A stretch of DNA of 64,000 nucleotides from Mya arenaria (taxonomy: Eukaryota), in the NCBI RefSeq assembly GCF_026914265.1, contig NC_069127.1, positions 1,617,682-1,681,681 on the forward strand. The letters are read 5' to 3'. Below the pieces are notes generated by a model that saw nothing but the letters and a program-made list of their open reading frames with translations, searched no databases and was not told the DNA's origin. The position numbers were made by a program, and so were the translations under genes. This document shows positions 5,114-57,700 of this stretch, in pieces. How positions within the stretch are numbered: position 1 is the stretch's first letter; each line of letters opens with the position of its first letter.

Positions 5114-8100
5114 GTGAGTGCACACAGAACAGGTGCTAAATATAGACCACACTAGTACTAGTTTCAGACCCAACCCAGGGGTATGATAATAATGACATTT
5201 GATAGTATCTATATGAATATGTCATTGAAGATGAATCTCTCGGCTGATTGCTCCTTATGGAGATCAGACTTCCCATGCAATTTTAAACAACTTGGTAATC
5301 ACACACCTTATATGATTTAAATACCTTGAAATTACTAGGCCATTTTAATGCTGTCAAAGATTTCATATAAAATATACTTTGTTACATTTTCCCTGTAAAA
5401 CTCAACAAATTCATAACAAGAAGTGAATGTGATCTGTGATCGAAATATGTTTAATATATGACAAATAAACTAATTTATTAGAGGTTATTAAAATTTATTG
5501 ATATATGAAATTTAGATACAGATAATAAGATATATAACATTTTCTGTTGAGGATTCAACGTTAACCTTCTTAGAAATGACTGTTGTTTGTACGACTTCTC
5601 AAGATAATGTTTATCATGTGGTACACATAGCAGAATTCATCAACATAGTTGATAATCACTTATTAAATAAAATGTCTATACATTAATTAGTCAAGTTGTT
5701 ATTTAAAAATATAAGAAGTACATTTATTATTTTGATTTCTTAGTTTAAACAAATGAACAGATTAAAGAGAATTGTTCATGGTTTGTATAATTAACTTCTT
5801 ACGAAAAAGAAATGTTACATAATAAAGTGAAGCAAATAATTAGTGTTAAAACTAAGATACTGACAGCTGGAATCCTTCAACAAATGCTGATATTTGCTCA
5901 AATATTTGAACACCACAATTTTGAAAAACATTAGCAGTGTGATTCCCCAAAGTGTTGCTGTGTGATTAGTTGATCACTTTATTAAATGTGATGTTAACAA
6001 TGTCTTTGATAAAGGTTAAAATATCAATCTTGTGTTGTCTTTGTGACTGAGAGGTTAAAGCTTCATTTTTCTAATTTTTTCCTGACTGTACAGTGTACTA
6101 GCATGGGTTCGCTCCCCACGAAAACCAGAATATTTTTTAATACTCTTATTGGTTTTTTTTCTACAATTTCGGTATCAAAGAGTGAAATAATAATAAAATA
6201 AGTGTTTTCAGATGCATTTTGGGAAAACTAGTTTTGGTCCAAAAACATAAGCGAGTCCCTTTAAAATGATAATAATAATGAAATTATAAAGTTTAAAAGT
6301 TGAAATTCTTGAAAAAAAATGCATATTTATAATCAAATAACAGAATATAAATGAGATCATATTTATTTTGTGTATAAATATAACAAAAACAACTGATTTG
6401 TAATCTAATGAATCAAAGAATCAGACTTTTGCATGTAGAGGCATTCTTTTTTGGGGGGACTTATTCTAATGATGTCTGCTTTGACTACAGGACATGAAGC
6501 TGCCTCAGGGCAACTACCGGTCCACTATAAATGTTGGGTCAGATTCCGGCCGACCCCAGGTAGAGATGACGGACCTGCCAACAGAGAAGCCTAGGGCCCC
6601 AGTGGACGAGCCATTTCCACTACCAGAGATCCCTCACCTTCCCAGGGTTGAAACAGGTCATGATGTCATGAACCTTACACTGCATCAGGTATGTCACTAT
6701 CTGTACTGTGCATTAAACAAAATAGCAAGGCAGTATCTATTAGTGCTGCAAGATAGCCATCTATATGAATGGAATATCCACTATACTCCCTGCAATTTTG
6801 AAATTCATCCTCAAATTTAGACTAAAGTCAACTTGTTTTACTTTGAGTCAAATTTATGTGCAACTCAAGTTACCTGTGTTGGGGGAAAATGGAACTAACT
6901 GCAAATTGCTATGTTGTTACCATGAAAATCAAACCCTCACTCTGCAGACAAAAACACTTCCATATTGCTATAAAAGCTGGCTTAATCATCGGTCAGTTAG
7001 AATGTGGGGCTCTTTATAAATATTAAAAATGAAGTCAAAGTTTATTTGGAATATTTTTTTTACCCCAGTGTGCAAGAAATGGGGATGTAAAGAGCTGCAA
7101 GATCTTGTTGAGCAACATGGGCGGGAATGTGAAGAAAAAGATAAATGTTCGAGATGAAGATAACCTCACCCCGCTCCACTACGCTGCACGATACAACCAG
7201 CTCAACGTCCTCAAACTACTCATTGATAACCATGCAGGTTTATTATTTTTAAAAATCTTATAAAACTAAAATGTAACACAACATAGTTTAGTAGAGGATG
7301 TGCCCATTTCTAAACATTATATTAATTTTAAAGAAGGCAATGAGTATTACATATTAATGTTGATGGATTATTTTGGAGACTGATGATTTATCGGGAACAT
7401 AAATAAAGACTTGATATTCATGATTGTTTTTTTATGTCATTGTTTTGAAAATCAGATGACCATCTAGATGAACACAGTTTGTGCTTGGATATATTTTATT
7501 GAAAAAGACTATAAACTAGTGTAAATAAGTGGTGTCTTCTGCAGATTTGAATGCACGTGATGATGAGGACCTGACAGCCCTGCACTATGCTGCCCGATTT
7601 AAGAGGGAAACCAAGAACAGACGAGTGGATGGAGATGAAGACCAACCACAGGTATGTACTGTCAGGCAGGGCAGGAGTGTCCTGTCAGGTAGGGCAGGTA
7701 TATACTGGGGAGGTATGTACCGTCAGGTAGGGCAGGTATGTTCAAGGAAGAAGGATGGGTATGTACTGTAAGGTAGAGCAGGTATGTACTGCCAGGTAGG
7801 GCAGGTATGAACTGCCAGGTAGGGCAGGTATGTACTGCCAGGAAGGGCAGGTATGTACCGTCAGGTGGGCAGGTATGTACTGTCAGGTGGAGCAGGTATG
7901 TACTGTCAGGTAGGGCAGGTATGTACTGCCAGGAAGGGCAGATATGTGCTGTCAGGAAGAGCAGGTATTTTCTGCCAGGTAGGGCAGGTATGTACTGTCA
8001 TGTGGAGCAGGTATGTACTGTCATATGGAGCAGGTATGTACTATCAGGTAGGGCAGGTATGTACTGTCAGGTGGAGCAGGTATGTACTGTCAGGTAGGGC

Positions 8101-11100
8101 AGGTATGTACTGCCAGGAAGGGCAGGTATGTACTGTCAGGTAGGGCAGGTATTTTCTGCCAGGTAGGGATGGTATGTAGTCAGGAAGGGCAGGTATGTAC
8201 TGTCAGGTGGAATATGTATGTGCTGTCAGGTAGGGCAGGTATGTACTGCCTGGTTGAGCAAGTATGTACTGTCAGGTCATGTTTGGGTGGTAGTCGGTGT
8301 TTACAAATGACCATAGGGTATAAAAGGTCATGTGGGGGTGGTAGACTGTTTTGACACATGGCTGTCAGATAAAAGAGGTCATGTAGGTTGTTATACATGA
8401 CTATCAGGTTCAAGAGGTCATGAATGTGTGGTAGTCACTTGTTACACATGGCTGTCACATATAAGAGGTCATGAAGGAGTGGTAGTCACTTGTTACACAT
8501 GGCTGTCACATACAAGAGGGCGTGAAGGGGTGGTAGTCAGTTATCACACATGGCTGTCAGCTACAAGAGGTCATGAAGGGGTGGTAGTAAGTTATCACAC
8601 ATGGCTGTCAGCTACAAGAGGTCATGAATGGGTGGTAGTCAGTTATCACACATGTCTGTCAGCTACAAGAGGGCATGAATGGGTGGTAGTCACTTGTTAC
8701 ACATGGCTGTCACATATAAGAGGCCATGAAGGGGTGGTAGACAGTTATCACACATGGCTGTCACATACAAGAGGCCATGAAGGGGTGGTAGTCACTTGTT
8801 ACACATGGCTGTCACATACAAGAGGGCATGAAGGGGTGGTAGTCAGTTATCACACATGGCTGTCACATACAAGAGGCCATGAAGGGGTGGTATTCACTTG
8901 TTACACATGGCTGTCAGCTACAAGAGGTCATGAAGGGGCAGAAGTCAGTTATCACACATGGCTGTCACATACAAGAGGCCATGAAGTGGTGGTATTCACT
9001 TGTTACACATGGGTGTCAGCTACAAGAGGTCATGAAGGGGCAGAAGTCAGTTATCACACATGGCTGTCACATACAAGAGGTCATGAAGGGGTGGTAGGCA
9101 GTTATCACACATGACTGTCACATACAAGAGGCCATGAAGGGGTGGTAGTCAGTTATCACACATGGCTGTCACATACAAGAGGTCATGAAGGGGTGGTAGT
9201 CAGTTATCACACATGACTGTCACATACAAGAGGTCATTAAGGGGTGGTAGTCAGTTATCACACATGGCTGTCACATACAAGAGAGTAAAGCCCATAACTC
9301 TAATAATTGTAAACTTTTTTCACCTTTTTTGATTGAACCCCACCCCCAGTCAATTGTTGATGTTTGCTCATATTTCTGGGTTATTTCCTACTTTGAGTAG
9401 CAGTTATATAAGTATACAGTTATATAAGTACTCTCCTATTCCTTGTCAGGAGAATGGCGGTATGCCCCACAGTGACACAGCTGAGGACCTGGAGTCCCAG
9501 ACAAGCGTAATATCGTACCTTGTGACAAAAGGCTCAGATGTGAACGTGCGTGACCTTTATGGACAGACACCGCTACACTATGCCTGCATGAGAGCCAACG
9601 AGGTCGCCTGTCGTGAGCTGCTGAAGTACAGACAAGTCAACATTGAGGTGTGTCAATCTAGACTTCTGAGTTCCTAGAAAACAAGTTTTCTTAAAGCATA
9701 CAAAATTCAAATGAGATTCATCAATATCAATTTAAAAATAATTGCTCTTATACACAGCTTTTGTTTTTTAATTCAGTAGCTGTCAGGTGTGTTAAAGATA
9801 TAAGTGTACATAATATAAAATGAAAAATCATCGTTAATTGACAATTAAAAGCCCATTAGCTGCCACTTTAATGTAATCAAATGTAAATCATACATTTCAA
9901 AATATATAAATGGGATATGTTGTAATATGAGATTATTTCATAAAAGTATTCTTAGAAAGAAAAATTCACAGTTAAACTGTAAAAAAAAATGCTTTGATGG
10001 CTGCAGGGATCGAACCCTGGTCCTTTCGTTCAGCAGGTGGGAAATAATAAAATGCTTGTTTATTAAAATGTCATCCCTTCCAATTAATGGCCAGACTGCT
10101 GGCCTTTATAGACATCTTGATTGATGAACATCTTTGCTTCCTACCCCTTTCCTATATGCCTGGCGCCTGGCATGAAAGCAATTAGTACCCATTATTCAAT
10201 AGCTGCTGCATCACAGCAACTGGCCAAATCAGAACAAGACCCTTGTGAGACTTGAAACGTCATCAGGTGGATGGCTTTACCAACATGCAACAGTGACAGA
10301 TGACTGCATAATGTTTTATGGAACTTATTAATACAAATTATAGTTTTGCGAGAATTTAAAATATTAGAGAAATAGTTGCTGTATTCAAACTTTTATGTTA
10401 CTGTGAGTTACTTGAACATACTTTTGTCAACTAATTTCTCTAGTCAGCAGGTCAATAAGAGGTGTTTAAATGGCCTAATGCAATCAGTAATTCATTTATT
10501 TATTGGTAAATATAAACAAATACACAGGTTATACAAGAGTGTACCGCTTAAATGTATTGCATTATAATTGTCAATACTGTGGCAATTATGAAATGTTATT
10601 GTACACCAACAAGTGGCTGTATTCCTTCTTTATGAGATAATAACCAGAATGAACCTTGTTCACTAGGCAGCAGACAAGCAGGGTATGACACCCCTACACA
10701 TGGCCTCCTCCCACCATCAGACACTCATCGTGAAGATGTTGATCCGATCAGGGGCTAATCTGCGATGTAAAGATGACGAGGACACGACTCCCCTACATGC
10801 TGCGTGTACGGAGGGCAGCATCGAGATTGTGCGCAAGCTGTTCAATGCAGGTGCTAAATTGGATGGATGGGTGACAATCCAAAGTGTAAGAGTCATTTTA
10901 TATTATTTAGATAACAGGAAAGTATTATACCACGTGTTTGCTTTTTTACTTTTTTAACCTAGTTTTTTTTTGTGTCATTTCAATTTTGCAGATTTTGCTA
11001 TCCAGTATGGTCTGACAACTGATAGCTTTTGAGGATTGGTTAATCTCCGAACTATTTTGATTTCATTAAGAACATCCTTGTGATTTGATATATCATGTTT

Positions 11101-14100
11101 GTAATAAATGTTCACATATTTCTTTGGTACTTATAAATAATTTGTTAAATAATGATGCATTTAATTAAACAAATGTTCATTAGATTTTCCAGTTCCTTCT
11201 TATGTTAGTGAATGTTGTAGGAATTGTTCTTCTTTGTTTACAGATGGTAACAGACAAGGACATTGATGGGAACACATGTCTGAGTCTGGCAGTGGAGAAC
11301 GGCCATTATGAGGTGGTCAAACTGTGTCTTGAGAAACGTAAGTAGCTGTGTGCTACATTATAATCTGAATCACATTTGTTGCATTTTATGTAACCATATG
11401 TATCTTCACCAAAAGAAATAGAAATGATAAAATATATATTTTAATATTAAGTAAGCTTATCAACTAATCTGAGTGTCAGCTTGTCAATTGTGTTTAAGGT
11501 CATTCAAGTGTAAAAGGTTCAGATATAGCATGTATGAGATATACCCAAATAAGAGGCAATTCTGTGTAGTTAGCTCACTACTACCACTGACAATCCTAAC
11601 ATGCTATTTGTCATTCAGGAGCTGATGTGAACACCCCTAACACTATCTACATGTATCCGCTGCACCTTGCCGCGGTGAACGGGGACCTACGTATTGTACG
11701 CCTGCTCATAGAGCACAATGCTCGTATTGACGCCCTCAACAACGAGCAGGCTACGCCACTGCACAAGGCCGCTCAGTACAACCACATACAGGTGGTCGAG
11801 TTTCTTGTGGACAGGTGAGCAGGTCATTATTAAACAGGCCAAGGTTGAATTTCTTTCAACTTTTTTGGCAGAATTTTATCTTTTTAACTTTTGGTATTTT
11901 TCAGCATAGAATTATTTTGTGTATTGTTTACTATTTGTATGATTAGTATTGTCATAATTATCATTTCAATTTCATTCTTACAAAAAATGGGAAACAAATG
12001 TGACAGTAGTGAGATAAGTGTTAAACTCCAGTCAAAGTTGTCATAGCAATAATACTTAAATCAACAGCACAAACTCATCCATTGTGAGGGGGAGATTGAT
12101 CTAGTTGTAAGTTGTCTGACTCGATTCCACAGGAGAAAGTTCTCGTGGCCTCTAAAAAAAGGCACCAGCTATAGTCAATCTAAAATAATGTAAACTAACT
12201 AAGCTCTGCACCACAGGGAAGCTGACATTGAGCGTCGCGATGAGGAGAACTACACGCCATTGTTACTGGCTAGCGTGTACGGACGTGCACCCACTGTTGA
12301 CCTTCTCATCCAGAAGGAGGCTGATATCTCTGCTGTCGACAAGAATGACAAGACAGCCATTTTTCTAGCAGCTGAGGAGAACCAGCTGTCTGCGCTGGAG
12401 GTTTGAATAAAATTGATGTAAATTAGTGTTTACCATTCACAAGTATTGAACAAGGGGAAGATTTTGTTTTCATTTCTTCAAAGTGTTATCTTCTGCAAGT
12501 ATCATATTTCATTATTAAATTTTATAAAATGAAGATAATTTGTATTGGTCTTTAGCAAGATAGATACTGGTGAATGTGTTGAATATACAATGTATGTTGT
12601 ATATGTGTACATTCATGTATTTCAGGCTTTGTTGAAGTATGACCCAGTGAAGAATCTCATTAACACCAGTGATCGCTATGACAACGATCCTCTCCACATT
12701 GCTGCCATGAAGGGTTATCTGCATATTGTCAGGGTGTGTGGCAAATGATGTTATGTCTTAATATTCAAGATTTATAAGATCTACATGAACACTGTCATCA
12801 TAATGTATTTGTATTCTGTTAACAATCAGCAAATGACTGTTTACAATCTAACCACAAATTGATCTTACAAAGTGGAATTTTGGAGTATGATATATAAAGT
12901 GCATACCCTACGGTACCTTGTTGGTGCCTGATTGTATTGTGGGACATGCTGTACATGTTTTTAAGAACTCTTCCATATTACAGTGCCTGTTGAAGAATGG
13001 TGCCGATCTGGACAGTAAGAACGAGGAGGAGCAAACCCCGCTTCACCTGGCTGCTAAGTTTGGGAGAACCAAGTATGCTATTACTTTTATTATTACATCA
13101 TAAATGAACATGCCATCATAAAATAACATCATTATATATATATGATCTGAGAGTAAAATAGAAATTTGTTACTGCTGCTGTTTCTTTCATGCACAGTTGG
13201 TGCATTTTTCTTAAGTTAAATATTATTTGTTCACTGAACTATCTGTTTTTTTGGAGTAAAAGTTTTACCAAACAATCAGTTAATTTTTGTTTCTTGCACT
13301 GTTTGAATTAGGATGTTGATACATAGAAGTACGTGTTTCCTATCTACCCTTTAGCATAGTACGTGAGCTGGTGACACAGGATAAGAACTCTGTAAATGAC
13401 GAAGATGAGAGTTCCAACACGGCCCTTCATCTTGCGGCACTTGCAGGTCACGCCAAAGTCGCGGAGGTCCTGCTGGAGTTCGGAGCTGATGTTGCTGCAA
13501 GGTATGTAGACATGCTCAAACAGTGACTAGAAAAACACATTCAAATTGTCTCTCTCCCTGTTCAAATGAGACTGGAAGCCAGTTGCATAGAGGTAGCACT
13601 TTTTAAAGTACCACATATGAGCCCCATTTACCTAAAGCAATACCCAGATCATAAAAGGGCTTATAGAACAATTTAATTAATAAAAAAGAGTTTTACGGCT
13701 CATTTCAAATGCAAATTTTCTATGCGACGCTATTCACATGGCAGCACAATTGTAGCCATGGGAACCTATGATTATGAGCAGTTTTGAGAAAATTATAAAA
13801 TATAACACTGGTGTGTGTTTTAGGAATGTGAGTATGTGGACCCCACTGGACTGTGCGGCAGCCAAGGGTTGGATGAAGACGGCAAAGGTTCTCCTGGAAG
13901 CTGACTCCCCTATTGACCCTATGGACAAGGCAAAGGTATGATGGCTTAACTAGGGTTGGGATGGACAAGGCAATGGTATGATGGCTTAACTAGGGTTGGG
14001 ATGGACAAGGCATAGGTATGATGGCTTAACTAGGGTTGGGATGGACAAGGTAAAGGTATGATGGCTTAACTAGGGTTGGGATGGACAAGGCAAAGGTATG

Positions 14101-17100
14101 ATGGCTTAACTAAGGTTGGGATGGACAAAGGAAAGGTATGATGGCTTAACTAGGGTTGGGATGGACAAGGCAAAGGTATGATGGCTTAACTAAGGCTGGG
14201 ATGGACAAGGTAAAGGTATGATGGCTTAACTAGGGTTGGGATGGACAAGGCAAAGGTATGATGGCTTAACTAGGGTTGGGATGGACAAGGCAATGGTATG
14301 ATGGCTTAACTAGGGTTGGGATGGATAAGGCAATGGTATGATGGCTTAACTAGGGTTGGGATGGACAAGGCAATGGTATGATGGCTTAACTAGGGTTGGG
14401 ATGGACAAGGCAAAGGTATGATGGCTTAACTAGGGTTGGGTTGGACAAGGCAAAGGTATGATGGCTTAACTAGGGTTGGGATGGACAAGGCAAAGGTATG
14501 ATGGCTTAACTAGGGTTGGGATGGACAAGGCAAAGGTATGATGGCTTAACTAGGGTTGGGATGGACAAGGTAAAGGTTTGATGGCTTAACTAGGGTTGGG
14601 ATGGACAAGGCAAAGGTATGATGGCTTAACTAAGGTTGGGATGGACAAGGCAAAGGTATGATGGCTTGACTAGGATTGGCATGGACAAGGCAAAGGTATG
14701 ATGGCTTGACTAGGGTTGGGATGGACAAGGCAAAGGTATGATGGCTTAACTAGGGTTGGGATGGACAAGGCAAAGGTATGATGGCTTAACTAAGATTGGG
14801 ATGGACAAGACAAAGGTATGATGGCTTAACTAGGGTTGGGACGAAAAAGGCAATGATATGATGGCTTAACTAGGGTTGGGATGGACAAGGCAAAGGTATG
14901 ATGGCTTACCTAAGGTTGGGATGGATAAGGCAATGGTATGATGGCTCAACCAGGGTTGGGATGGACTGAGGTTTTCTTTTAAACTATAAGAGTGAGATTG
15001 AGCTGAATTATCCTGGTTTCATTTAAGTGAAACATACCACAAGTGTCATCCTTTTTACGATGTCACACTGAGAGCAAAAGTATGAAATTAAATGAAAAGT
15101 AAATAAAACTTACCTTCACATATATGCATGTAGCACATAACATATAAGTGTTTCTTCTTATTTGTAGACAACACCCCTTCACTTAGCTGCCAGATATGGT
15201 CACGTCGAGGTTATCAACCTTCTCCTTGACTGGGACGCCGATGTGGAACAACGAGACTCCGATGGCAACAACTGCCTTGATCTTGCAATCGACCATAACA
15301 ACTCGTATGATATTTGCTTTGTTTTCTTTGTGTAAAACTCATCTAGGCCATATAAAATTGTTTTTATGTTTAGGGTCAATCCTTATTATGAAAACTTATA
15401 TAGCTTTCCTGAAAAATCAGACAAACCCCCCCAAAAAACATTACTAAATGAGTGACATCCTATGTAGATTCTCAATTGTCAGATTGTATTTCCACTGCAA
15501 AATGGGTTCAAATTAAACTTGTAATTAAGTGTGTTGATCATGGGAGTCAAACAGAATGCTTCTTTTTCTGATATCAAACGCCAAGAATATTAGAACAAAC
15601 TATGAAGCATGTGGTTTACACTTGTGTTCTATAGTTGGAATAATAGACAAAGGTGATTAAAAATCTTCAGCAACATTGATGATCATATAAAATGTTTTTC
15701 AATCGTGAAGACACTAAACATAGAAACGATTGGGTATGGGTCTCTGTGTTTACCCCGGTACTTAAAGTTTTCTTTCACTTTTACACTGATGTTATTGCAT
15801 TATTGTATATAACCACTCAACTAACATTAAGGATCCATAACTGGGCATAAACAATCTTTGATGTTGAAATTGCATACTAACATATTTTGATGCAGAACAC
15901 CTGATTTCTAACAATTATCTGTTTCGTAGATTGTCAACAAACATGTAGAGTGACATGTTCTCTAATGTAACAATTTAATCAACAACTACAATGAAATTCA
16001 TAAACAAGTTCATTTTATAAATGACCAGTTGTTTATTTTGAAGAATAAATAAAATACAAGATTGCACTAGTTCAAAATGACTGCCATTCCAGGAATGTAG
16101 CGACCGCGATCATCAAGTCTGACTACTGGCATGAGGCCCTACGCAACCACACCCTGGACCTCATTACCAACAGACATGACACGCCCATGAGGAAACTCAT
16201 CAGGAAAATGCCAGGCAAGACAAATGTCTTATACATGTATATGCCAGGATTGCTTATAAGGACTTTTATTTAAAGTATCAGGGTTCGAATTTAACTTTGA
16301 GGAGCACTCGCAAAATTTAGCGAGTGCATTTTGAGGCAACTCGCAAAATGACAAATCAACTTGCAATTTCATTATTTGCTTTATTCCCTTATAATATTGT
16401 CTTATTAAAGTAGGAATTAACACCTAAGACATATTATGAATATTAAAAAGTATCAATCTTGAGTGACTCGACTACTAGAACTTGTTGATGGCTTATTCTA
16501 TTTGGGGGTTATGGAAAGACTCGTCTGATGCTAGCAGCTTTTTGATAACAAAGCTGTCCAATAATTTGACATTGTTCACTTTGTATATTTACCCTCGCCA
16601 TCGGTTAATTTAAGACCCATTCGACAAGCACGCTACATATTTCATTAAGTCTATAAGTATTAAAAACAATAAAATAATAAATTTAAAATAAAAAAGCAAC
16701 AGTAAATGTAGCGTTGATACTTTGGACCATGAAATATATCGATCAACGAAGTCTATTCATTTTGACAGGATGATGGGGTTTACATATAGTGCGCAAAAGC
16801 GCTAAATTTAGCCAATGATTGAGCTAGGTGATTACGTCATTCGTATTTACTTTGTATTATGCACACCTCGGAGCATCCCGGAAAGATTCGAGATAAAACT
16901 TGGCCTTTTCCGTATTTGTTCTATTTTTGTAAACCTACTTGAGCGTGACTCCGTACTGTCTTCTTTATACCGGTAGTGTAAACATGCCACTTATAGGCTG
17001 TTTACACTCGACTACATATCGGAATTAAGTTCATGTTTATTCTACTTTCCTTTTAACATTTTGTGGTCTAGAAAAGCCACTCGCAGAATTTTGCGAGCTT

Positions 17101-42785: not shown

Positions 42786-45700
42786 CTGCGAAACACAAAG
42801 AGAAAAATATGAATTTGTTACTTGGCTACATACTTTATAATTATGTGCACTTAAGAGGCCAGAATGTGAGATTGTGAGCATCTTCTTAAATATTGTAACC
42901 AATATGTGTCTATAAAAATCATGGTATAGGCTGGATCCTGAGCTATTGGAATGGAACATGCACATGTGTTACTTACTAAACAGAGGACTGTGAAGCCAAC
43001 ACAAATGCTCGTCTGTGGTTTTCAGTTGCGAGGGCATAACTGAACAATGATTAAAGACAGAGTGATGGCCCTTGCTATACATGTGTGTACTGTCTTTCTC
43101 ATGTTGACAGCAATGTTAGCAATATGTCTAGCAAACTCCAGTTGAATAATTCAAACAATTTTTATTGATGGCCATAGTTAAAGTGTTTGCACAACAACCT
43201 CAACAATAGACAGACATGACAATATCGCCAACTTTTAAAAAACAGACAAGATAAACATAGCAATATTTAAAACATGAAATTGATATTGTTTGACATATTT
43301 TTCATTATTTTATTTTTTTTATGTATTTTATACATACACTTACTGGAGCTATGAATAAATAAACACTATAAAGTCTTACCGGAGTGTGAGATTTCTTTGC
43401 CTCTTTGAGGTCCCTGTGTAATGATTTGAGTGTTTCCTCAAGACGTGTCTGTTTGATGCGCAACATAGACGCTGCCTCTGCCTCAACCTCGAGTCGAGCT
43501 TGCTGCTCTCTCAGGTGTTTGATCATCACCTAGACGACAAAGAGGGTAAAAAATGTATGAAATATCCTAATGAACTACTGAAGATATGAATCTAATGCTA
43601 GGAGTATCTGAGGAGCTAGAGTTCTACTTTTATCCAGCTGAGGTAGATCAAGAAATCAGTTAATAAAACCAGGGCAGTAGTATCATCACAATTTACATAA
43701 CAGTCGAAAGAGGATGACCTTCATGAGAATGACTTTACAAATTTCTAGACAAAGAAATAAAAAAAGTTAAAAGAGTATTAGACAAAAAGAATACTTTTAA
43801 CTGACAAACGCTATGCACAAATATGAAACTAATTCTTAAACCACAACCTACCTCCTGAGTATCAACCTTGCTCTGCAATTCCGCCATCCTTGACGTTGAG
43901 TGTTCCAGGGCGTTCTGGGCAAGGAGACGCTTCACTTCCTGTTGGTGGGAGTCTCGCTGCTGTTCAAGACGTTCCTCGTATGCCTCCTGTGTACGGCGGA
44001 GTGCAGCCTCCCCCTCTGCCACAGCACGCTGGATGTCCACCCGACACTGACTAACTTCCAACTGTACCCGCTCCACCTGACAAATCACAAGCATAGTTTG
44101 TATGAACAATGATATCCAATAGTGCCCAGTTTACAATTTGCCCCAATATATTATTTTTTTCATTATATCAAGTATGCAATAAAAACAAAGAAATAAAGCA
44201 TTAATGTCACAATATCAAATGTGTTGATCGAAAGTTCTTAATTCATAATCCTAACTGTTCCCTCAGGCTATTGCTATATAAACACTATGTCTATAAACAC
44301 ACTATGGCTATATACAGGCATACATATCATAGACACTCATAACATATTTTTTGCACAGAATTTCATGTCCTTTCCATTGATATTTTACATCATAATAACA
44401 TTCATACCTTCATTTTGAGGTTATCATTTTCCTGGATGACCTCAGATATGTGTGTGTCCTGGAAGACCTTGGCGTCATATGTCTTCCCCTGTAGTTCAGA
44501 CGCCGAGGGAAGGGACGTAAACTCAGCTGCATCATCTCCCTTGTTACCTCCCCTGGCACCCAGCTTCCCGCGCTTGCCTGACAAATACACAGATAAAGTG
44601 TTATGATCATGCAACAACAAGGTTAGTAATGAATAACCAGCATGGTTGTTAAGAAAACAACTTCTGTAGTAAACAAAATTGACCAATTCAATAAGTACAT
44701 ACAGAAAGCTCACACCAGTGTCTGTTGGATTGTTTTTAGAACTTTAGAACTTAGAATCATTATTCCTTATCGCTCATTTATAAAGTAAATCATCTTTAAA
44801 ATTGGTAAAATCTATAATCTATATACCGGTCATCCGAATTAACCAAACTTTCTGTCATGTTTACCATTATCGCCAGTGATCGCGAGTTGTCTGTCCTTGC
44901 GTAGGCGATCTAGAGATTTCTGAAGGACCTGAATGTCATGGTCCTTACCCTCCACCTCCAACTGGAGAGTCTTAACAAGGGCACGCAACTCTGCCTCCGT
45001 CTCCTTTGTCTGAGACTCTGCTTTAGCTGCAAAGAAAGCCAAATAAACTGAAAATATTTTAACAACAGCAGTCATAGACTGTCATATCCCCAGCAGAATG
45101 AAGGATAGGATCCAGTTCACCTTTTGTTAAAGGATACCAATGAACAATAACAAAGCGCAATTACTCACAAAAAATGCATGCAGCAAAAGTTATGGTTCCT
45201 GTGCACTGCACTTCTCCTCAATTTGATCTATCTGTATGTGAAGTCAATTTCTTGAAGGCTATGTATGAAATTTAACAAAGCCCAATAACTAAAAACTAGA
45301 GCTGTCACAGGAGTGACGAATACCCCCAAATGCCGCCTGGACACATGAATGGCAAACCATTCCTTTGAAAAGAGGCCATAACTCCAAGGTTACTGCACAC
45401 TGCATCTTCTTTTATCATGCATGTCTTGTTTTATTTAAATCTGTTGAGTAATTTAGAAGTTACACTGCTGACAAGAAAAACTCTCCTTTCATGAGTTATC
45501 GTCCGGAAACCGTTTTTCTATTTTTAGTAACAGTGACCTTGACCTTGGCCCCACCAGCCCCAACATCGAACTTGACCTGTACATGTATCTTCTGATGTTA
45601 CACCTGTGTACCAAAAATTGTTCAAATCTGTCTAGCCTTTCATGAGTTATCGTCCGGAAACCGTTTTTCTATTTTTAGTAACAGTGACCTTGACCTTGGC

Positions 45701-48700
45701 CCCACCAGCCCCAATATCAAACTTGACCTGTATCTTCTGATGTTACACCTGTGCACCAAAAATTAATCAAATCTGTCTAGCCTTTCATGAGTTATCGTCT
45801 GGAAACCATGAAAACCGACAGACCGACCGACCGACAGACCGACCGACAAGCTCACTCCTATATACCCCCTCAAACTTCGTTTGTGGGGGTATAAAAATGC
45901 AGCTAGAGTTGGAGTTTTTGTGCACTGCACTTTTCTTCAAAGAAATATACCTGAATATAAAGTTTGAAGTCAATTCCTCAAAGACTTTTCGAGTTATGCT
46001 CCAGACAAAAAAATAAGTATGAAAATTAACAAAGGGCAATAATTTTAAAACAAATGCCAGCAGAATTATGTTTTTTGTGCACTGGACTTATCCTTTATGA
46101 GATCTCTCTCCATATGGAGTTTGAAGTCAATACCTGAAACACTTTTCAAGTTATTCTCCAGACAAGATTGCCTGGATGACTCACTTACCTACCATTACTA
46201 TATCCCCTTTGCCCTTGGCAGGGGATAAAAATATTTATCAGTACCATTATTCAATACATTCATTTGCTTTAGGAATCCCACCCAAGACAGATTCATGCAT
46301 ATCTCCCTAAAATACATAAACATGAGTGGCAATGTTATACAATCTCAAACTCTAAAATGCATATTATGAGAGTCAGTTTTGTCAAACAACAATAAAAACT
46401 AGTTACACATATGGCTAGTCAGACTACAAAAACAGCTAACTTTAGCAAAGCCATGAAATTACCATCAGATTTCTTGGCCTTAGATGCCTCTGCAATGAGC
46501 CTGTCAACCTCAGTCTGAAGGTCGCGGATCTGCTGCTTGTATCTTTCCCGCACGCTCTCCAGCTCACGCTCCAGAGCCACAGAGTGGGTGTGCGGGTGAA
46601 CATGGTCGGCTTGGCCCTGGTAGATGGATAGCTGAATCTCAAGCTCCTTGATACGCTCCTCATACTGCACCTGGAATGTAAGACCCTGGGTTGAATACAT
46701 GGAGATATACAGATACAGGTCACCAAGCAAGATTTCATACTAACTCACATATCGCAGTCCATGGATGAACCCTTTTGCTTTTAGGAATACTCATTAAGCA
46801 AGGAAGAATCAACTGTACTATTTCTGAAAACATACCATTCAGACACGCACTATTCAGATGCAAGCTTGAATACCATGTTATCATATTGGGAAATTTTGCA
46901 TGAGCACAACACCCAGACACACTAAAATTTAACACTGAAATAAAGCTGAATTTAGTTATACATGTGATAAAACAGTACCATTACATTGTTTTATATAACT
47001 ATTATCTAGCCAAGATACCAACATTCCACTCTGACAGGTGGTATCTTTGCTTGACTCTGCCATGCAGTGTCTTCATCTCCTGGGGTTGTATTCAACATTG
47101 TTCTTGTCCTTGTTCTTTGACACGCCTCAGTAATTCCACTCAGTCCATTGGCCAGTTATTTTTACAATCCAATCAAAACACTTGGATTCTAATCCTAAAG
47201 CTGCACGCTCACAGATTGAACGTTTAGACAACTTTTTTACTTTTTGTCTTGGAATGAGCCAATTTTTGCGAAAATCCATGGAAACCAGTTACATAAGACT
47301 GCTGACAAAAAATTAGTTCGCAGATTTTTATATTAAAGTTCAAAAATTGATGTTTTATGCATTTTCCTTAAACTGTTAGTAAAGGTTTAAGCAATAAAAC
47401 ATAATTTTCGAACGGAAATATGAAAATCTAGGATCTGATTTTTTGTCAGCAATTTTATATCATTGGTTTGAAGATATTTACGCAAAAATTTGCTTTTTCC
47501 CAGACAAAAAATAAAAAAAATGTAAAAATGGAATATCTGTGAGAGGCAGCTTTAACATCAAATAAAAATCTAAGGTAGTTATTGAATATAGCCCCAGATC
47601 TAATTGTTAATTTCCATAGTGAAATAAGCTGGCGATCACATACCTTGACACTATGGTACTTCTGTTCCACTCCACGGAGCAAGGTGTTTGTCTCTGTGTC
47701 TTTGCCCTCCAACTCCTTTTCTAGCTTGCTAACCCTGCTCTCCAGTACCTCTGTGTATGCTGTCCGCTGGTTGGCCTGCACATAGTTATTACATGTATTG
47801 GGTTACTATAGATTTGAATGGATAAAGGGGTGGTTTAATGTTTGGTTTTAGGCTTTGTGACTCAAGAAAATTTGTTTTTTTTGTAGGGTAGGCATAAACT
47901 GTAATTATTTACAGTAGCATATAATAATATCCAGAAATTGTTGCAATAATCAGATAGATCTTTGATTTGCGTACAAAATGCAACAATCAACTACATGTTC
48001 AACATGGACGATCAAATTTGCCAAATGGAAGTATGCCCAATGGTATAGTACATCCTCTATCTCTGTTACCCCACACAGCCATGTGGGGACAAAAGGTATG
48101 GCATACCTGGTTGTTGGTGTCGCCTGCAGCTGCCGCAGTCATCATAAGTGATTGGAGGGAGTTTGGATTGCGACGCTTCAGGATTGCCTCCATCTCCTTC
48201 ACCTATACACAAGGACAACAAACAATTAACAAAAATTTTGTGCTAAAATCACAAAGGTACATTTCAGGCTTTTTCTCTCCAATATACTATCATACAGGCC
48301 AATGAAACTTTTATAAATTAATCTTAATGTTGTCCATTAAGTTATAAATTATAATACGTATTTTGAAGACTGTTTAAACCTGTGTTAAACGTTCAGCAAA
48401 TAACACCCTGTGGAAACATTTAGGGTTACCTGTCTCTGAAGGTCCTGTATTTTCTTGGTGTCTCCTGCTCTCTCCCGCGCCCGCACCTTGCTATCCTCCA
48501 CACGCTTACCAGACTGGTAATAGAATAAACATGTTAACACATGAACCCATCTCAATAACATGTGTTTGAACAAATCAAGAATTTCAGTTAAATGTGAAAT
48601 GTCAAAAACTAAATTGAAAGTCTAACATCCAAAATAAATATTGCATAAACTGATTTTTAAAATTGATTTTCTTACTACTCAGAAATATAATATCAATTAT

Positions 48701-51700
48701 TGGATCATACAATATGTGTGTTGATTTAATGTGTGGCACCTCTAGCCCTGACTTTATTCTTATTTATCTGTTCACACATCAGCTTAAAAGTCATGCTCTG
48801 ATTGTCAAGAATGTCACAATAATTTTTTTTGAGGTATATTTGTATACACTATTATTCATGTGTACAATTATTAGTCAACATGATAAATAACTTCAATTTA
48901 TAAATCATACTACTATAAGAGTTTTTACTGTACTGACATCATGACATCATGTTATATAATAACTAATTGTAAAATCGACAAAAAAAAAAAAAGCCTTGTT
49001 TTGTTTTACATTGAAATAATCGCATGTTGAGAGTGTCAACAATTCGTTATACTGAAAACCACATCACACCACTCACCTCAGTTTGTAGTTCTTCCAACCT
49101 CATCTTGAGTCTGTGTATCTCGTCCTCGCGGGCCTTGACCTTGCGGGCCCCCTTGTCTAGTAACTCCTGGTTCTCTGCATACCACTTCAATTTCCCCTTC
49201 AACTTCTCCACCTCACCCTGGTACTGCCGCTCCAGTGCCTGATGTAGGAAAATAAATGATGAGCACGTATAAACTTGTATGTCAAATAGTTAACTTTAAA
49301 GGTATATTTGAAGGAGATTATTACTTGTTGTGTGGTGTTAACCATAATGGTCCAAGGTTGCTAATGTTAATTTAATGGTTGAAACAACTTGAATATTTAA
49401 AATTCATTTTTCTTTTCTGATCTAACATTATCACAGGTTTCAAAAAAACTAGCCCTGTTATTGAAGTGATAATCAACTTCATCTTTAGACCTCAGACACA
49501 AACGAAACCCTACATATCATGTAGATAGACCTCCCACACAAACCAACTGCACATACCATGGCCTCCTCAGACTTGAGGGTCTTGTTCTGTTCTATTGTTT
49601 TCTGCAGCTGTTCTCTCTCCAACACAAGTTTTTCAACATGTTTCTCAAGCTCAGTGCGCGAGTGCTGCAGGACGCCCATCTCCCGTGACAAGGCGTCACA
49701 TGTTTGCTACAAATTCATAGCAAAGTTATGATAAAGTTTTATAGGTTGAGGTGCCAAAATTATACTTCAAACAAAAAGCATATAAAACCATTCTGCAGTC
49801 ACAGTATTTTGTCTCGCACCCAGGATGTAAAGGGGGTAGGATGACATTGAACAATTGTTATGTGTTTCACTTCATGAAAGGGATCACATATGCAATATAA
49901 TATATATATATGTAGAATTTATCACTATTGCTATATTGAACTTTTAAAATTTGAATGTACAACAGCTAACATCCTATGAAAAGAATAATATTAATCAGCA
50001 TTATGACCAAATGATTGCCACCACAGCCAATTTGCCCCACCCTTGCCTATGTGCCCCACCCTAGCCTATGTAACCTACCCTAGCCTGTCCAAGCTCTCCC
50101 TCCAGGTGTGCTACGGCCTCGCCTGTATTCCCTGCAGCGAGCCTCTGCTGTGCAGCTGGCCCCGTTATCAGCCCCTTGTTCTGGTACTCAGCCTCCTTCT
50201 TTTCAAGCTGGGTCCTGGAACCGGTACATGAACATGTAATGCTTATTTAGGACAATGGTGAAACATGACATGATACTTGTACATCTGTCTCTGACTTTAA
50301 GCAATGTCAACTATCAAATAGGCATTTTTACTACAATTTTGTTCCACTCTATGAAACTACATTGTTCATGGATTGTAACATTCTGTATAGGAATATGGAA
50401 GTGTTGACTGCTGCAAACTAATGTTTTAATTTTAACTTGACAAAACTAATGCAATAAAACAAAATGAAAAAAAAATGTTCTAAAAGCAACAAACTTGGAG
50501 AGCTTAGCGTATACAGTAAAACAAGACAGGGTTAAAGGGTTATAGACAGGGGAAAATAAATGGGAAGCACAAATCAACTTTATATAAGTAATTAGACATT
50601 TCACTCAATTAATTACACTAATATATAAATTTGACTTAACATTAAGACATTTTTCTAGCCATTTAAGAAAATTTAGCATTGTTCTGATCAAATCACAGCA
50701 ACTCAAACCATACTTACAGCCTCTCTTTATCAATTTTTATTTTTCTACAAAATGAAAAGACACAATGGGCAACACAAACAGAACATTCTTAGGCCTACTG
50801 GTACCAGTACCACATATATCACATTGAAATCATACAACAAGTCTTATAGTAGTAATTAAACATCCATGTAGCTGAAAATGTCAGCACAGTTACTGTTAAT
50901 TATCACCAGGATTGCACTAGGTAATGCAACATGCAAGCAGTTTGCGTCACATGCTGCTTTACATGCTGTAAATGAATCCAAAGTACATGTGCAAGGACAC
51001 CCCTGAACTCCCTGAGGTTTTGTGCAGCTCGTGTGTGGAGTTACTATAACACTCCTTAAGCCCTTAATATCTGAGGTTTGGGGCCGCAATGAGGACATCC
51101 CTGCACCCTTGTACTGGATGATTTGAGGCCCCTGTAAGACTGGCTGGACGACTTCTGTACGTCAAGTACCTGAGGTTTGTTGAATCTGTGATGACACCCC
51201 TGCAAACCCCATACCATTGGCCACTGTGAGGACACACCTGTATCTCCCATACTAATGATTTGTGGCCTCTTTGAGGAGACCCCTGTATCTCCCATACCAA
51301 TGGTCTGTACAATACCCTGTACCTGAGGTTTGATGACTGCGACACTTTACTAGAGCATCCTGCACCCCTGTATCCAAGGTTTGTGGCCTTTTTGAGGAGT
51401 TACTTGAACACCCCTACATTCCATACATGAGGTCTGCAGTCTCTGTAAGGACACTCTTGCGCCCGATGTATGTGGCCTGTGTAAATACACCCCTGAACCT
51501 CTGCCCTTCATACCGGAAGTTTGCACCTGCCCTACCCCCTTTGTACCAGAGGTTAGCAGCCTTCTGTGAGCCCCCCCCCAACTTTTTAGCAGAGGTTTGC
51601 ATATACATCCTCCCCCTCATATCAGAGGTTTGCAGCCGTCTGTGAGGCCATACCTGCCACCCCCCTTTCGTACAAGAGGTTTGAGTCCATCCCTGCCCAC

Positions 51701-54700
51701 ATTCCTTTCATACTGGTGGTTCGCAGCCTTAGTGAGGCCATCCCTGTCCCTCCCCCACTCTTTATAACAGAGGTTAGTGGCCTCTGTGAGGTCAACCCTG
51801 CACCCCGCATACCTGAGGTTAGCTGCTTCTGTGAGGAGTTTCTGATTCTCCTGGAACATCTGGTCCTCCAGCTGCTTGCTCTGCTGACGGAGATTCTTCA
51901 TCTCATTGTACAGACGCTTGTTCTCCTATATACGAACAAGCATGGGAAAGTGAGGGAATATTTGGTAAAAATATCAATAGGGATTTCTTACTTCTGCAAC
52001 CTGTGTCTCTGTGTCAATGATTTTGGCCAAAACCCATTGTTTCTTTTTGTTTACAAAATGTTCATAAAAAACATTACTGTTAACACCAATTAGGACTGTT
52101 TTCATTATATCTACTAACAACTTTACAATGTGGTAAGTTTTCTTACACTGTAACCCTGCCCTGTGTGTTCATACCTGCTGGTACCCAGCTATGAGTGTTT
52201 CTTGCTCCTTGACTTCCTTCTGTAGTCCCTCAAGCTGGTCCTTATCGAGACCCTCCAAGGGTTCCCCTGCCAGCACTCGTCTCTTAACCACACCATCACC
52301 CTCACCAGATATCTGGACATGAGAAAAATCATGATATTTGTTAATGCAAGTTTAACTGATTTGGTAAACACTTTGAAAAACATATCATCAATGAAATTTG
52401 GCAATAGAAAATAAAGGTTGAACCTAAAAGAATATATGCATTTTTTATATGACTATATGTTTTCAAAGCTGTTAGTTAATAGGGGTAAGCAGTAAGTCCT
52501 AAACTTCAGAAAGGCTATGGCACAAATAAAACTTTTTAACCATTTCATGAAAAATGACATTAATATATGTATAGACAAATGCTACATGTATTCTACAGTA
52601 CTATGTTTACATTAAACTCAGTCAAGGTCTATGCCAAGCCATGCACCAACACATGCACTGACCTTGGCCTTGAACACAACCACACACACTGACCTTGAAC
52701 ACCCACACCCGCGCTGACCTTGGCCTTCAACAACCCCACATGAACACTGACCTTTGCCTTCAACAACCCACACACACACTGAACTTGGCCTTGAACACCC
52801 CCCCCCACACACACACACACCGACCTTGAGCACCCACACACACACACACACTGACCTTGGCCTTGAGCACAAAGTTCTCTTGTCTGAGTTCAGCCAACTG
52901 CTGTTCATACTCCAGTTTCTGTCCCTCCAGCTGCCGCTCATAGCTCCGTGCCTGGGATTCCAACTCGCCTAGGGAATGGGTACACAAAAAATAACAGTTG
53001 AAATGCAAATAATGACCATAGAGCAAATTTATCATGCAAAGAATAACAGTCATGCAGCAATGCAGCAAATAAATTACTACAGTCGAACCCCGTTGGCTCG
53101 AATTCCTAGGGACTGGCTACATAACCTCGAGCCTCGGAAATTTTGAGCCAAGAGGGAATGTTTACATTCAGTATATAGAAATAGGTCCCTTACATCCAGT
53201 TCGAGCCAACGAGGAATTCGAGCCAAGCGAGTTCGAGCCAACAGGGTTCAAATGTCCTCACATTATAACATTTTTGCAGCATATATCATTCATGCAGCAA
53301 AAAAATGCCACGCAGCAAATAATTATAATGAAACAAATTAAATAAAGAACTAAACATATACTTTGAGAATCTATAACTGACAGAAATTTTAATTAAATTG
53401 TTAGTCGTAAGGAACAAAAACAATTAACTAAATATTTAACAGTAACAAACAGAATGTGTGGCTCATGACTGAGTTTGTAATAAAATATTATTTGTCATGA
53501 ATAAGTACAACATATCTTCAAACACACAAAATAAATCACTTTAGAACAACCAAATACATTCCAGGACCTTTAAGGCTGGCTATAACCTGGTCCTTATCTT
53601 CCTCTGGCTGTTCCTTCTCCTTAAAACTGGCTGACACTGAGGGCTCATCCTCTGAATACTTCACCTGCACAAAATTTCAAGATATTGTATATGTTGGATA
53701 TTTTTTATGTTAAAATACTCTCTTTTATTGAAGATATCTATTATGGAAAGAAATGTATTGAACAAAACTGTGCAACATTTTCAATTAATTAAATATTCTT
53801 AATGATTACATCAAATACAGAATATTTTCAAACAAATACCATTTACATTCTTACATTATCTCTAATCACAAACAAAAGCTGATTTGGGTATAAATTCAAA
53901 GAAAACAAAAGTAACCAAACAAATGCTCCACCCGTCCACGGACAGTACCTGTGGTGCCGGCATGCCAGCAAAATGGTCTTTGATATACTTGGCAAAGGAC
54001 TCAACAGATGCATCCAGCTGAGTTGCTGCCATGGTCCCCAGCTTCACCTGCCGTGATGACTGGCTCCCTGCATGATGGAAACTTACTGTGATATTTGTTT
54101 TCAAGTACCAATATCAATGGCCCTTATTGATATGCCAATATACTCACACCAAGAGCTCCATTGAATAAAAATTCCAACACTTAATAATTTTTTTTTTTTT
54201 TTCTCACTTTCAGTGATTTGTGCATTCTCATAAAATGGAATATTTTGACAAAAAGCATGACTGGAGATGAATAACACTGAAATCTTCAACACAAGCTGAT
54301 ATTGTCTGACAATGCATTATTCTGTATATTAGTTAACATACCAATGATTTTGTTCTTGGCTATTTCTGCAGGGCTCCATAGCTTTTGAGACAGCCCCTTC
54401 TTGGTCTTTTTCCCCTCCACATCGGAAGGGCCAGCCCTGCCGACCTTGGCTGGGGACTGGGCTGGGGAGGCACTAGTGTCCTTATATCCTGAAGATTAAA
54501 ACATCAAGTATGGAATAACAGAAAATATTTACAAAACTGAATCAAATTATATTGCCTTAGAATGATAATCAAAGGTCAAGCGAAGAACTGATATAAGAAA
54601 ACTAATCATTCCTGTTTAAGTACTGATAAAATAAAGCAATTCTTTGTATGCTGTTGTATTACGGCCTCTGCACATTATCATAATAATATAACAGCCAGAG

Positions 54701-57700
54701 TATCAACCTTCCTGAGTGCCATGTGACCTGGAGTACCCAAGCAGTTCCTTCTCACGGTCCCTATTTTTGTCCCGTGGAGGTTTTGGGGGGCTGAATGGCT
54801 GACCGTATCCTGAACTCTTCACGGCCTTGTGCTTCCACTTCAGTGTTTCAGAATAGTCTGAAAACACAATTGGAACACGATCGTATTGCGTCTTTCAGAA
54901 AACATTTACATAATGTAGTATTGGCAATGCTAAGTTAGTGTAATTTTTTTTGTGTGTGTGTGTTTATGCTAAATGAGCGCAAGAGGGTAAATGAGCAAAT
55001 CTATGAAAATAATACTGAAAATCAGTTTAATTCTATACAAAAAGTCCCAAAATGTAAATATTTTAAAGTGGAATACTTAAGAGCTCTCACTCATTCAGTG
55101 TTTTCAAAAAAAGTGTGTAAGTAGAATCATGCATAATAAAGAAAATATCACAACAGAAAGTCAATAAAGGTAAAAAGGTCAAGAAAAATTAATTCAAGGG
55201 GCTATATTCACATAACATATTAGTGAAAAACCAGCAATGTTTCACAATAATTTCCAACAAAATGCTTTATGAATATTGCCCCAGAGGTACACTGAGGTAC
55301 CGTGGTAAATGTCATGTTGTATCTAACTAACACTTACCAATTTTCATGGGAGATGAGGACCGGGATCTGTCAAGTGTAGATCCAAGGCCCTTCTTTCTAC
55401 CATCTTTTGGTGATTTACCCTTGCCGGACCTCTTTTTCTCATCCTTCCCCACCTTCTTCTTACCCCTGCCCCTCTCTGTCACACTCTGCCAGCAGACAAC
55501 AATAACTTACAAGATACATTATACAGAATCCTTTATTTAATGTTTGATATATAATCATACACAAACAAATAACAACAGCTCTATTAGCTAATATCTGAAA
55601 GAAAGACTGACTAAACATATACTGTGTGCAACATGTAATTCAGTTGTAAAACAGTTATAACATGTGCTTTTAAAAAATAATGTTTAATGTTAAGGATGTT
55701 GCTTGGATTTAAAATTGTTCTATCAAACTGGAATTTCCCAATTCAATACCATTTTACACCCAGGAAAGGATGAACATGTTTTCTTGTAAGAACAGAATAT
55801 CCATTACTATGTTCATCACAAAAGAACCTTAAAACTTTTTATTAAATGGGATATGAAAATATGAAGGAAAAGTATGACAATGTTAAGTTAAGCATGAAGT
55901 TTAAGAAACAAAAATTGCATTGTATAAAAGTTTCAGAAAGAAAGTTTCAGAATCTCATCCAGCTTTTTTACACTTATGAAATGCATTTTTTTGGTCAAAA
56001 ATTAAATTGTTAAGGCCGAGTGATTCAGATAGGGATGAGATCTTAAAGCACATCTCGTCATATCCCTAGTAATGTGAACAAAACTATAGTTGGTTTATAC
56101 TAACTCGTTTTAGCTTGATTTTGCACAATTTTGAAAGATAATATTAATCATTCTAGTCCCTTTTCTAGGCAGAAAACAGTATCGTGTCCTTTTTGAGAGG
56201 TCATGGTTACGCCACTAGACCACTCTCACCCTGGTGAGGATCGAACCCATGACCTCTTGTGTGAGAGGCAGTCAGCTATACCACTAGACCACTCTCACCC
56301 TGGTGTGGATCGAACCCATGACCTCTTGTGTGAGAGGCAGTCACCTATACCACTAGACCACTCTCACCCTGGTGTGGATCGAACCCATGACCTCTTGTGT
56401 GAGAGGCAGTCACCACTCGACCACTCTCACCCTCAAACACTAGTTAGCCACACACTGTGCACAATATGATTCATTGTTGTTACGTAACTGTTAAATGTTT
56501 TGCATGCATGTACGATCAAAGAAATACTTACCACATTTACAATTAATCATCATCAACATGGGTTTTTAAATTTAAGTTAGGGACACACATGTCAGTAAAT
56601 AACATTGGTTACCAGACATCGAACACCATTAATATTTCACACACTGCATCAACTTGCATGGCAATAAACTTACATGTCTCGCTTGAAAAGCTGGGTCTTC
56701 CGACTAAATAAAACATTTATTTCTGCATAACACATGCAAATAAAATAACGTAAGATGCACTTTTACCAAAATGTATAAAATTCAAAATGAAAATAAAGAT
56801 TACTTTAGTATTTAGGTCACATATATGTATATAAGTCCAATGGAGGCCAGTATCCCACATAACTAAACATTCAATGTTGTTATGTCAAATGACCCAATAA
56901 AAAAATGAACTAATAATACACATTTAATTTACATTCAATTTACATAGTTTTTATGATAGTTTAAATTTTTTATAGAACCTCCAGTAAGAGTCACCCACCA
57001 CTTCAATAACAGGTTGGTACATCTCAGTATCCTCTGTGTGGGACGTGTCAAATCCCCCCCGGTACGAACTGTCGCCACGTTGTGAACTGTATGAATTCTC
57101 TCCTCCTCTGTACAAAAAACAACAGGTTAATTACAAGCACAATTGTCCCGTCCAGTCAAAGTATAAATATATGTCTGCTAGAAACTAAACACTTTTTCTT
57201 GTCACTTTGGATTTTTACTTGTGATATTGGAAACTTTCCTACAAAAAGACACCAAATGCTGTATAAATCAAAACGAGTTCATTTATGAAAGAATTTTTGT
57301 CACTTTTCAACACTTTCAACCATTTTTTCCCTGATCTTATGGAACAAAGTGCCAATGAAAGAAACAACAGGCATTTTTCGCATTCAAAAGATTACCATAT
57401 AACAGTAAGATATTGGGCCTAAGACAACGATGTATGTTGGGAGGCCTATTTCCGTGAGCACAGCAAAGTACAATGGCGCCCTACATGAAACAGAAAGGGC
57501 ACACCTTAACCACAGGCCAAGGAAGCCCGCTCCATTTCCTGTAGATTGTCAAAACTGGAGACTAACTTATTTGTGTTTGTTAGTGCGTTCACCAGAATTG
57601 ATATACATAAACTTATTGAACAACAACTTTTGAAAAATCCTCAACTGTCATTGGTGCCCTCGAAAACTGCAAACATAACGTATATGCTACCTTTTACTAC

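Follow-up and report, generated by a model that had tools for sequence, protein, structure and literature searches.

The window described here is a stretch of 64,000 nt from the bivalve Mya arenaria (NCBI RefSeq assembly GCF_026914265.1, contig NC_069127.1, positions 1,617,682 to 1,681,681 of the forward strand; coordinates below are counted from its first letter). In this window, a minus-strand gene encoding CEP162 carries a tandem array at one of its 5' splice sites (donors), the G of which lies at 52855. We consider it highly probable that this array is a minisatellite of the 'mirage' type, whose first monomer lies across the exon-intron boundary of an old CEP162 intron and which arose by tandem duplication at the DNA level; as part of the same reading, the five intronic copies that bear a GT would be silent pseudo-donors and the array needs no function of its own. 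The initial annotation had placed an array at this position and described it as a copy of the exon end plus donor. Both statements hold, since seven units are present, the first of them crosses the junction, and an 18-mer spanning the junction recurs exactly. With tandem units of minisatellite size, a first monomer across an authentic boundary and a repeated splice site, the array is an exon-intron boundary minisatellite.

The exon at 52968..52856 (minus strand) terminates in ...LGELESQARSYERQLEGQKLEYEQQLAELRQENFVLKAK and is followed by GTCAGTGTGTG..., so that the exon end and intron start at the junction 52856/52855 read CTCAAGGCCAAG/GTCAGTGTG (a slash within a sequence marks the exon-intron boundary or its copy). 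Units were delimited on the minus strand by each occurrence of [CT][CT]CAAGG or TTGAAGG, which yields seven head-to-tail units running from 52867 to about 52644, with lengths of 37, 35, 32, 33, 31, 25 and about 31 nt in this order. The general form of unit 1 is CTCAAGGCCAAG/GTCAG(TG)nGGGTG, and the exon-intron boundary is located inside this unit. The features of the gene and of the array, all on the minus strand, are as follows.

42537-61262, minus strand: CEP162 gene region, supported by protein homology and a frame-consistent gene model; its 5' part is modelled in part only.
52856..52968, minus strand: CEP162 coding exon of 113 nt, ending in ...AACTTTGTGCTCAAGGCCAAG and encoding ...ENFVLKAK; the frame is open, AG is at 52970-52969 and GT follows 52856; the homolog P0002 aligns with ENYILQAK/L.
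52854..52855, minus strand: GT at the real 5' splice site (AAG/GTCAGT), in frame with the next exon at 52312 in the gene model; score 4.5 with a simple donor matrix.
52831..52867, minus strand: unit 1, 37 nt, CTCAAGGCCAAG/GTCAGTGTGTGTGTGTGTGTGGGTG, made of 12 nt of exon and 25 nt of intron.
52796..52830, minus strand: unit 2, 35 nt, shortened by a 6-nt deletion and bearing a G9 run; pseudo-donor CAAG/GTCGGT with G at 52824, use of which would add 31 nt and a stop.
52764..52795, minus strand: unit 3, 32 nt; junction copy CCAAG/TTCAGT, with GT changed to TT at 52783-52782; use would add 72 nt.
52731..52763, minus strand: unit 4, 33 nt; pseudo-donor CAAAG/GTCAGT with G at 52751, use of which would add 104 nt and a premature stop.
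52700..52730, minus strand: unit 5, 31 nt; pseudo-donor CCAAG/GTCAGC with G at 52718, use of which would add 137 nt and a premature stop.
52675..52699, minus strand: unit 6, 25 nt, with a 6-nt deletion; pseudo-donor TCAAG/GTCAGT with G at 52693, use of which would add 162 nt, with an in-frame stop upstream.
52644..52674, minus strand: unit 7, the last, about 31 nt, with an exact 18-nt junction copy at 52656-52673; pseudo-donor with G at 52662, use of which would add 193 nt and a premature stop; the unit fades into unique intron.
52313..52643, minus strand: remainder of the 543-nt intron, AT-rich and non-repetitive, running to the acceptor TTTTCTCATGTCCAG/ATATCTGG.
52175..52312, minus strand: next CEP162 exon, ISGEGDGVVKRR...IAGYQQ, supported by the gene model and homolog alignment.

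The 18-mer TCAAGGCCAAGGTCAGTG is found exactly at the real junction (52849-52866) and at 52656-52673, and three further copies differ from it by one or two mismatches. The same junction with a 6-nt deletion (CAAG/GTC), which falls within a CAAGG-CCAAGG sub-repeat, is present in two further units. By chance, only 0.05 matches to the 18-mer would be expected in the whole window, and none of 100 shuffles reached seven. The array was independently detected by Tandem Repeats Finder (TRF), with a period of 25/32 plus two (CA)n runs. The units end in (TG)2-8 followed by G runs, and they differ from each other in the length of this TG tract, the G9 run, the 6-nt indel and point changes, with a mean pairwise identity of 0.71. 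Where one unit passes into the next, GTG is followed by CTCAAGG, which is identical to the exon sequence, where TTTGTG is followed by CTCAAGG. The unit does not behave as a dispersed repeat in this window, as it has only two matches outside the array, each at three mismatches and both within an unrelated 151-bp repeat.

The motif AAG/GT is kept in five of the six intronic copies (G at 52824, 52751, 52718, 52693 and 52662). According to a simple donor matrix, these pseudo-donors score 1.9-4.5 against 4.5 for the real donor, and three of them equal the real site. Use of any of the five GT-bearing copies is predicted to introduce a premature stop (inserts of 31-193 nt). Only unit 3 (+72 nt) would preserve the frame without a stop, and there GT is mutated to TT; this loss was observed just once, and little weight should be put on it. 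The RNA fold of the array region is no more stable than that of shuffled sequences (z = +1.3). A 12-nt inverted repeat (52615-52626 and 52879-52890, 11 of 12 positions complementary) flanks the whole array and makes pairing between exon and intron RNA conceivable; about 0.5 such pairs are expected in 700 nt, which puts this pair at chance level.

The assignment of the host gene to CEP162 is based on its best homologs, the CEP162 proteins of Saccoglossus and fish (E = 3e-74 and weaker), whose alignments track the exon chain, while no bivalve CEP162 was returned by the protein searches. In the gene model, the donor G at 52855 is separated from the next exon, beginning at 52312, by an intron of 543 nt. 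The exon end ENFVLKAK aligns with ENYILQAK/L of a vertebrate-like CEP162, and by this alignment the exon end at 52856 is ancestral coding sequence, which means that the repeat was derived from the exon and not the exon from the repeat. Saccoglossus CEP162 has an intron directly 5' of the homologous next exon, at a position that matches by alignment, and the neighbouring introns (GYHQ/ENKRLY; ...NLR, phase 2; ...AQ/gt) match exactly in position and phase between Saccoglossus and Mya. Since this match indicates an old intron, the array arose from an existing junction and did not create the intron.

The array at 52855 is not the only one of its kind in the window. The initial annotation counted it as the fourth case in 64 kb, distributed over two genes; several independent cases do occur in two genes, though the number was an undercount, as five junction-copying arrays were found, two in a TRPA1-like gene and three in CEP162. 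The TRPA1-like gene and the four other arrays are listed below.

6566-23775 (about 6.5-23.8 kb), plus strand: TRPA1-like gene, supported by a frame-consistent gene model.
7649..8277, plus strand: 23-mer array of about 26 copies at the TRPA1-like donor with G at 7652, beginning at donor position -3 (CAG/GTATGTACTGTCAGG...GGG); the exon part is 3 nt.
13921..14966, plus strand: 40-mer array of 26 copies at the TRPA1-like donor with G at 13936, ATGGACAAGGCAAAG/GTATGATGGCTTAACTAGGGTTGGG; 15 nt of exon and 25 nt of intron.
51000..51836, minus strand: old, degenerate array with units of about 50 nt at the CEP162 donor with G at 51812, which repeats the donor together with about 24 nt of the exon end (CCTCACAGAAGCAGCTAACCTCAG/GTATGCGGGG).
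50020..50088, minus strand: 19-mer array of about four copies at the CEP162 donor with G at 50078, ACAGGCTAGG/GTAGGTT; 10 nt of exon and 9 nt of intron.

In the 23-mer array, GT is kept in 23 of 25 intronic copies, mostly at full score, and its unit contains GGGCAGG, which we take to be part of the classical human minisatellite core. The 40-mer array keeps GT in 24 of 25 intronic copies and has an in-frame TGA immediately after the donor; the exon end at this junction, PIDPMDKAK/TTPLH, is confirmed by the Dreissena and Mytilus orthologs. The array at 51812, which TRF did not detect, has at least 13 recognisable copies, with GT intact in 8 of 13 and lost in 5 of 13, and Saccoglossus has the intron that hosts it, identical in position and phase. 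On the sense strand all five arrays are rich in G, with 30-43% against 20% in introns overall and a GC skew of +0.16 to +0.57 against +0.12, while the intronic arrays that do not copy a junction are mixed in G content.

An unbiased scan, in which each junction 20-mer was compared with its own intron at up to four mismatches, gave hits at 3 of 40 donors and at none of 40 acceptors; the remaining two cases emerge under a looser criterion. In total, 5 of 50 donors in the window are copied, against 0 of 50 acceptors. The chance expectation was obtained analytically from the summed unit lengths, 50 donors, 32.6 kb of intron and 11 intronic arrays. Under uniform placement about 0.63 donor-spanning arrays would be expected, against the 5 of 11 observed, an excess of about 8-fold (Poisson p of about 7e-4, post hoc).

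Seven further TRPA1 loci from other lophotrochozoans were also considered (Mytilus coruscus, Dreissena, Ruditapes with two loci, Mercenaria, Lymnaea and Capitella), of which the Capitella locus has no usable donors, and about 49 exactly defined donors and acceptors were tested in the remaining six. One of the roughly 49 donors is copied and none of the roughly 49 acceptors, with a uniform expectation of about 0.6-0.7. The positive case is at 21941-22069 of the Mytilus coruscus locus (L001), where a 43-mer in three copies joins the last 26 nt of an exon (ISKALNPEL) to GTAAGATATATTTATTG; it is independent of the Mya arrays, coming from another bivalve and a different junction of the orthologous gene. 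The donor excess of the Mya window is thus not confirmed in the other loci, which form a small sample of low power. In Dreissena polymorpha (L002, 13226-13364), a 21-mer in about seven copies stops 7 nt short of the 3' splice site and contains no copy of the exon start. A Mercenaria 26-mer with 122 copies was rejected as a junction copy; it starts 250 nt downstream of the donor. In Ruditapes philippinarum (L003, 17244-26847), a TRPA1-like gene holds four near-identical small exons with similar flanks, spaced about 3 kb apart; exon plus intron are here duplicated in tandem with a large period.

We propose that the array at 52855 began as a DNA-level tandem duplication, one breakpoint lying some 12-14 nt before the exon end and the other some 25 nt into the intron, probably through slipped-strand mispairing or unequal exchange between the exonic TTGTG and the TG/G-rich stretch just past the donor. 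The array would then have grown to seven units and afterwards decayed, with smaller slippage events altering the (TG)n tracts, the G run and the CAAGG-CCAAGG sub-repeat. Microsatellite slippage had been suggested as the engine in the initial annotation, and the suggestion is supported in part: the TG tract varies between 2 and 8 repeats, and the unit boundary, being exon sequence, fits mispairing of TTGTG with the TG tract. Exonic sequence makes up 3, 10, 12, 15, 24 and 26 nt of the unit in the six cases (five in Mya and one in Mytilus). Such variation is what random DNA breakpoints would produce and speaks against a mechanism that depends on the chemistry of splicing. A process linked to the splice cleavage site, such as lariats or reverse splicing, would instead yield units that begin precisely at GT.

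By analogy with the published human and amphioxus cases, persistence of the array could be explained by tolerance, in which the most upstream donor is used and the extra copies are plain intron. Duplications within exons or over acceptors would be more harmful and would alter the mRNA, and this would account for arrays that touch splice sites being seen at donors (six, against none at acceptors), where the copies stay intronic. Several points weigh against the duplication-and-tolerance explanation. That Mya uses the first donor exclusively is an assumption carried over from those published cases, the array is known from one haplotype, and the microhomology rests on 3-5 nt and is not evident at the other four arrays. 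Moreover, simple tolerance does not explain why 5 of 11 intronic arrays are located at donors when 0.63 would be expected.

This excess leads to the possibility that donor junctions in Mya are true mutational hot spots for minisatellite birth, through G/GT-rich slippage or through breakage and repair linked to R-loops or G-quadruplexes, which would add to the duplication-and-tolerance explanation without replacing it. We regard this as rather unlikely. The 5 junction-spanning arrays among 11, the sense-strand G-richness of all five (30-43% against 20%) and the independent Mytilus coruscus case at a different junction speak for it; however, the statistic was computed post hoc on a single window, the single case in about 49 donors of the six other loci is near the uniform expectation of about 0.6-0.7, the first 60 nt of other introns show no G enrichment (20% G), and the exon share of 3-26 nt gives no sign of anchoring at the splice site. 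For a donor-specific engine, for which the initial annotation had named R-loops and slippage primed at donors, these data speak neither for nor against. The array might also be under selection as a splicing element, serving as a cluster of U1 snRNP sites or of UG-rich or G-run protein sites that aid recognition of the upstream exon, or as alternative donors that feed regulated nonsense-mediated decay; in vertebrates, splicing can be affected by U1 bound within the intron downstream of a donor, by G triplets and by UG repeats. The usable GT in five copies, three of them scoring as the real site, and the disabling of the copy that would give an in-frame insert of 24 residues are in line with such a role. 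We nevertheless judge it improbable, because the units are decaying (mean identity 0.71, indels, one GT lost), GT is gone from 5 of 13 intronic copies in the old array at 51812, a loss that neutral sequence would show, there is no RNA structure signal (z = +1.3), and the pseudo-sites of human F7 do not compete with the real site (PMC1557585).

Two further explanations are very improbable. The duplication might have created the intron, by a gain of the Rogers type at an AGGT proto-splice site, or moved its position; AG/GT does occur within the units, and in other genes such gain is established (PMC2891723, PMC3087553). This reading is close to refuted, judging from the Saccoglossus CEP162 intron directly before the homologous next exon, the flanking introns that match in position and phase, and the alignment of the exon end with vertebrate CEP162. 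The resemblance might also be a chance likeness of a GT microsatellite to a donor, or an assembly artefact, in a low-complexity region of a repeat-rich window (about 19% in arrays). Such an origin is equally hard to reconcile with the data: an exact 18-nt junction copy and four further close copies stand against 0.05 expected, and the units differ by substitutions and indels, unlike a collapsed or duplicated assembly. The preferred explanation is still a duplication across an existing CEP162 junction whose copies are tolerated as intron.

The window also contains repeats of other kinds, and tandem arrays occupy about 19% of it in total. Two large arrays are intergenic, namely a 24-mer of about 169 copies over 4 kb (36253-40308) and a 55-mer of about 35 copies over 2 kb with a higher-order period of 165 nt (31297-33338). 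An exon-junction origin was checked for both of these and for a further intergenic array at 27396-27864, and none was evident. Tandem repeats of about 145-151 bp that share GACCTTGACCTTTGACC-type motifs form two blocks (40913-41994 and 45485-45807), one intergenic and one in a CEP162 intron, and probably represent a satellite associated with a mobile element. Another CEP162 intron carries, at 56212-56414, a 69-mer in 2.9 copies with 98% identity that includes a tRNA-like segment (GGATCGAACCCATGACC), which is probably a tandemly amplified fragment of a short interspersed nuclear element (SINE). A further gene of the window is the following.

0.2-4.4 kb, minus strand: parkin gene, with exons 100% identical to 'parkin-like [Mya arenaria]', an identity that assigns the window to the soft-shell clam.

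The protein collection includes the parkin of Mya, while the searches returned no Mya TRPA1-like or CEP162 protein for the genes at 6566-23775 and 42537-61262. The repeated-donor arrays might have disturbed automatic annotation of the CEP162 and TRPA1-like genes. Arrays of this type are traps for gene prediction, in that a predictor can pick the wrong copy, and they are also natural tests of how the spliceosome singles out a donor when up to 26 near-identical ones are on offer. With five in 64 kb and one in a mussel, the range of minisatellites that span exon-intron boundaries ('mirages') now includes bivalve molluscs besides humans and amphioxus. As a tentative idea that we consider unlikely on balance, Mya donors may be hot spots of minisatellite birth or retention, at about 8-fold over random intronic positions, and perhaps so also in other minisatellite-rich, highly polymorphic marine invertebrates like amphioxus; the cause would then be either a mutational bias of G-rich donor flanks or selection for repeated U1-binding sites. 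Should the donor excess be borne out across the whole genome, it would suggest that splice donors and the formation of minisatellites are connected, by mutation or by selection, in a way not yet quantified.

Several known systems resemble the array in part. In teleosts, pairing between (GT)n and (AC)n at the two intron ends reportedly helps splicing, as Lin et al. are said to have described in Genome Research in 2016. The clam array similarly places a (GU)n tract just downstream of the 5' splice site, but its TG tracts lie within a longer repeated unit, and bridging of the (GT)n/(AC)n kind is not indicated, with no (AC)n in 52313-52643 and a fold z of +1.3. Intron gain by tandem duplication shares the raw event, a short tandem duplication with AG/GT (PMC2891723, PMC3265369); here, by contrast, the intron pre-existed, its position is unchanged, and the duplication merely added pseudo-sites.

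The initial annotation regarded the phenomenon as neither described nor named, which does not hold: it has been described in the human genes F7, CBS, IFI6, LMNB2 and PDGFA (PMC1557585) and named 'mirages' in amphioxus (PMC3087553, PMC3902484). The Mya array is accordingly a new example in a bivalve and no new phenomenon, and the sole unusual point is how densely such arrays occur locally, with five in 64 kb. In intron 7 of human F7, Borensztajn et al. reported a 37-bp minisatellite (a variable number tandem repeat, VNTR) whose first element comprises 4 nt of exon and 33 nt of intron, and only the most upstream of its 5-9 identical donors is used, though all are functional (PMC1557585). Similar boundary arrays are present in CBS intron 13, IFI6 (6-16) intron 2, LMNB2 and PDGFA intron 4 (PMC1557585), and in IFI6 and CBS two pseudo-sites are used besides the real donor. 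The clam array is like the F7 type in that the first monomer lies over the boundary, identical 5' pseudo-sites come after the real donor, and the units are G-rich (TGG/GTGGGT in F7). The human arrays are polymorphic and experimentally tested, whereas the one in the clam shows more degeneration and carries (TG)n tracts inside its units.

The mirages of amphioxus are found in Adh3, the globins BflGb6 and BflGb9, troponin C and PGBD5, with units of 10-160 bp, according to two reports (PMC3087553, PMC3902484); these describe splicing as undisturbed and length as unstable, and state that the origin is unclear. Length and somatic instability were demonstrated there, while the Mya array was read from one haplotype. 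Amphioxus shows duplication at 5' and 3' exon boundaries alike, whereas only donors are copied in the Mya window. In both animals, tandem repeats run across an exon-intron boundary and the splice signal is repeated; mirages had been proposed as a trait of cephalochordates, and the same arrangement is found here in a mollusc.

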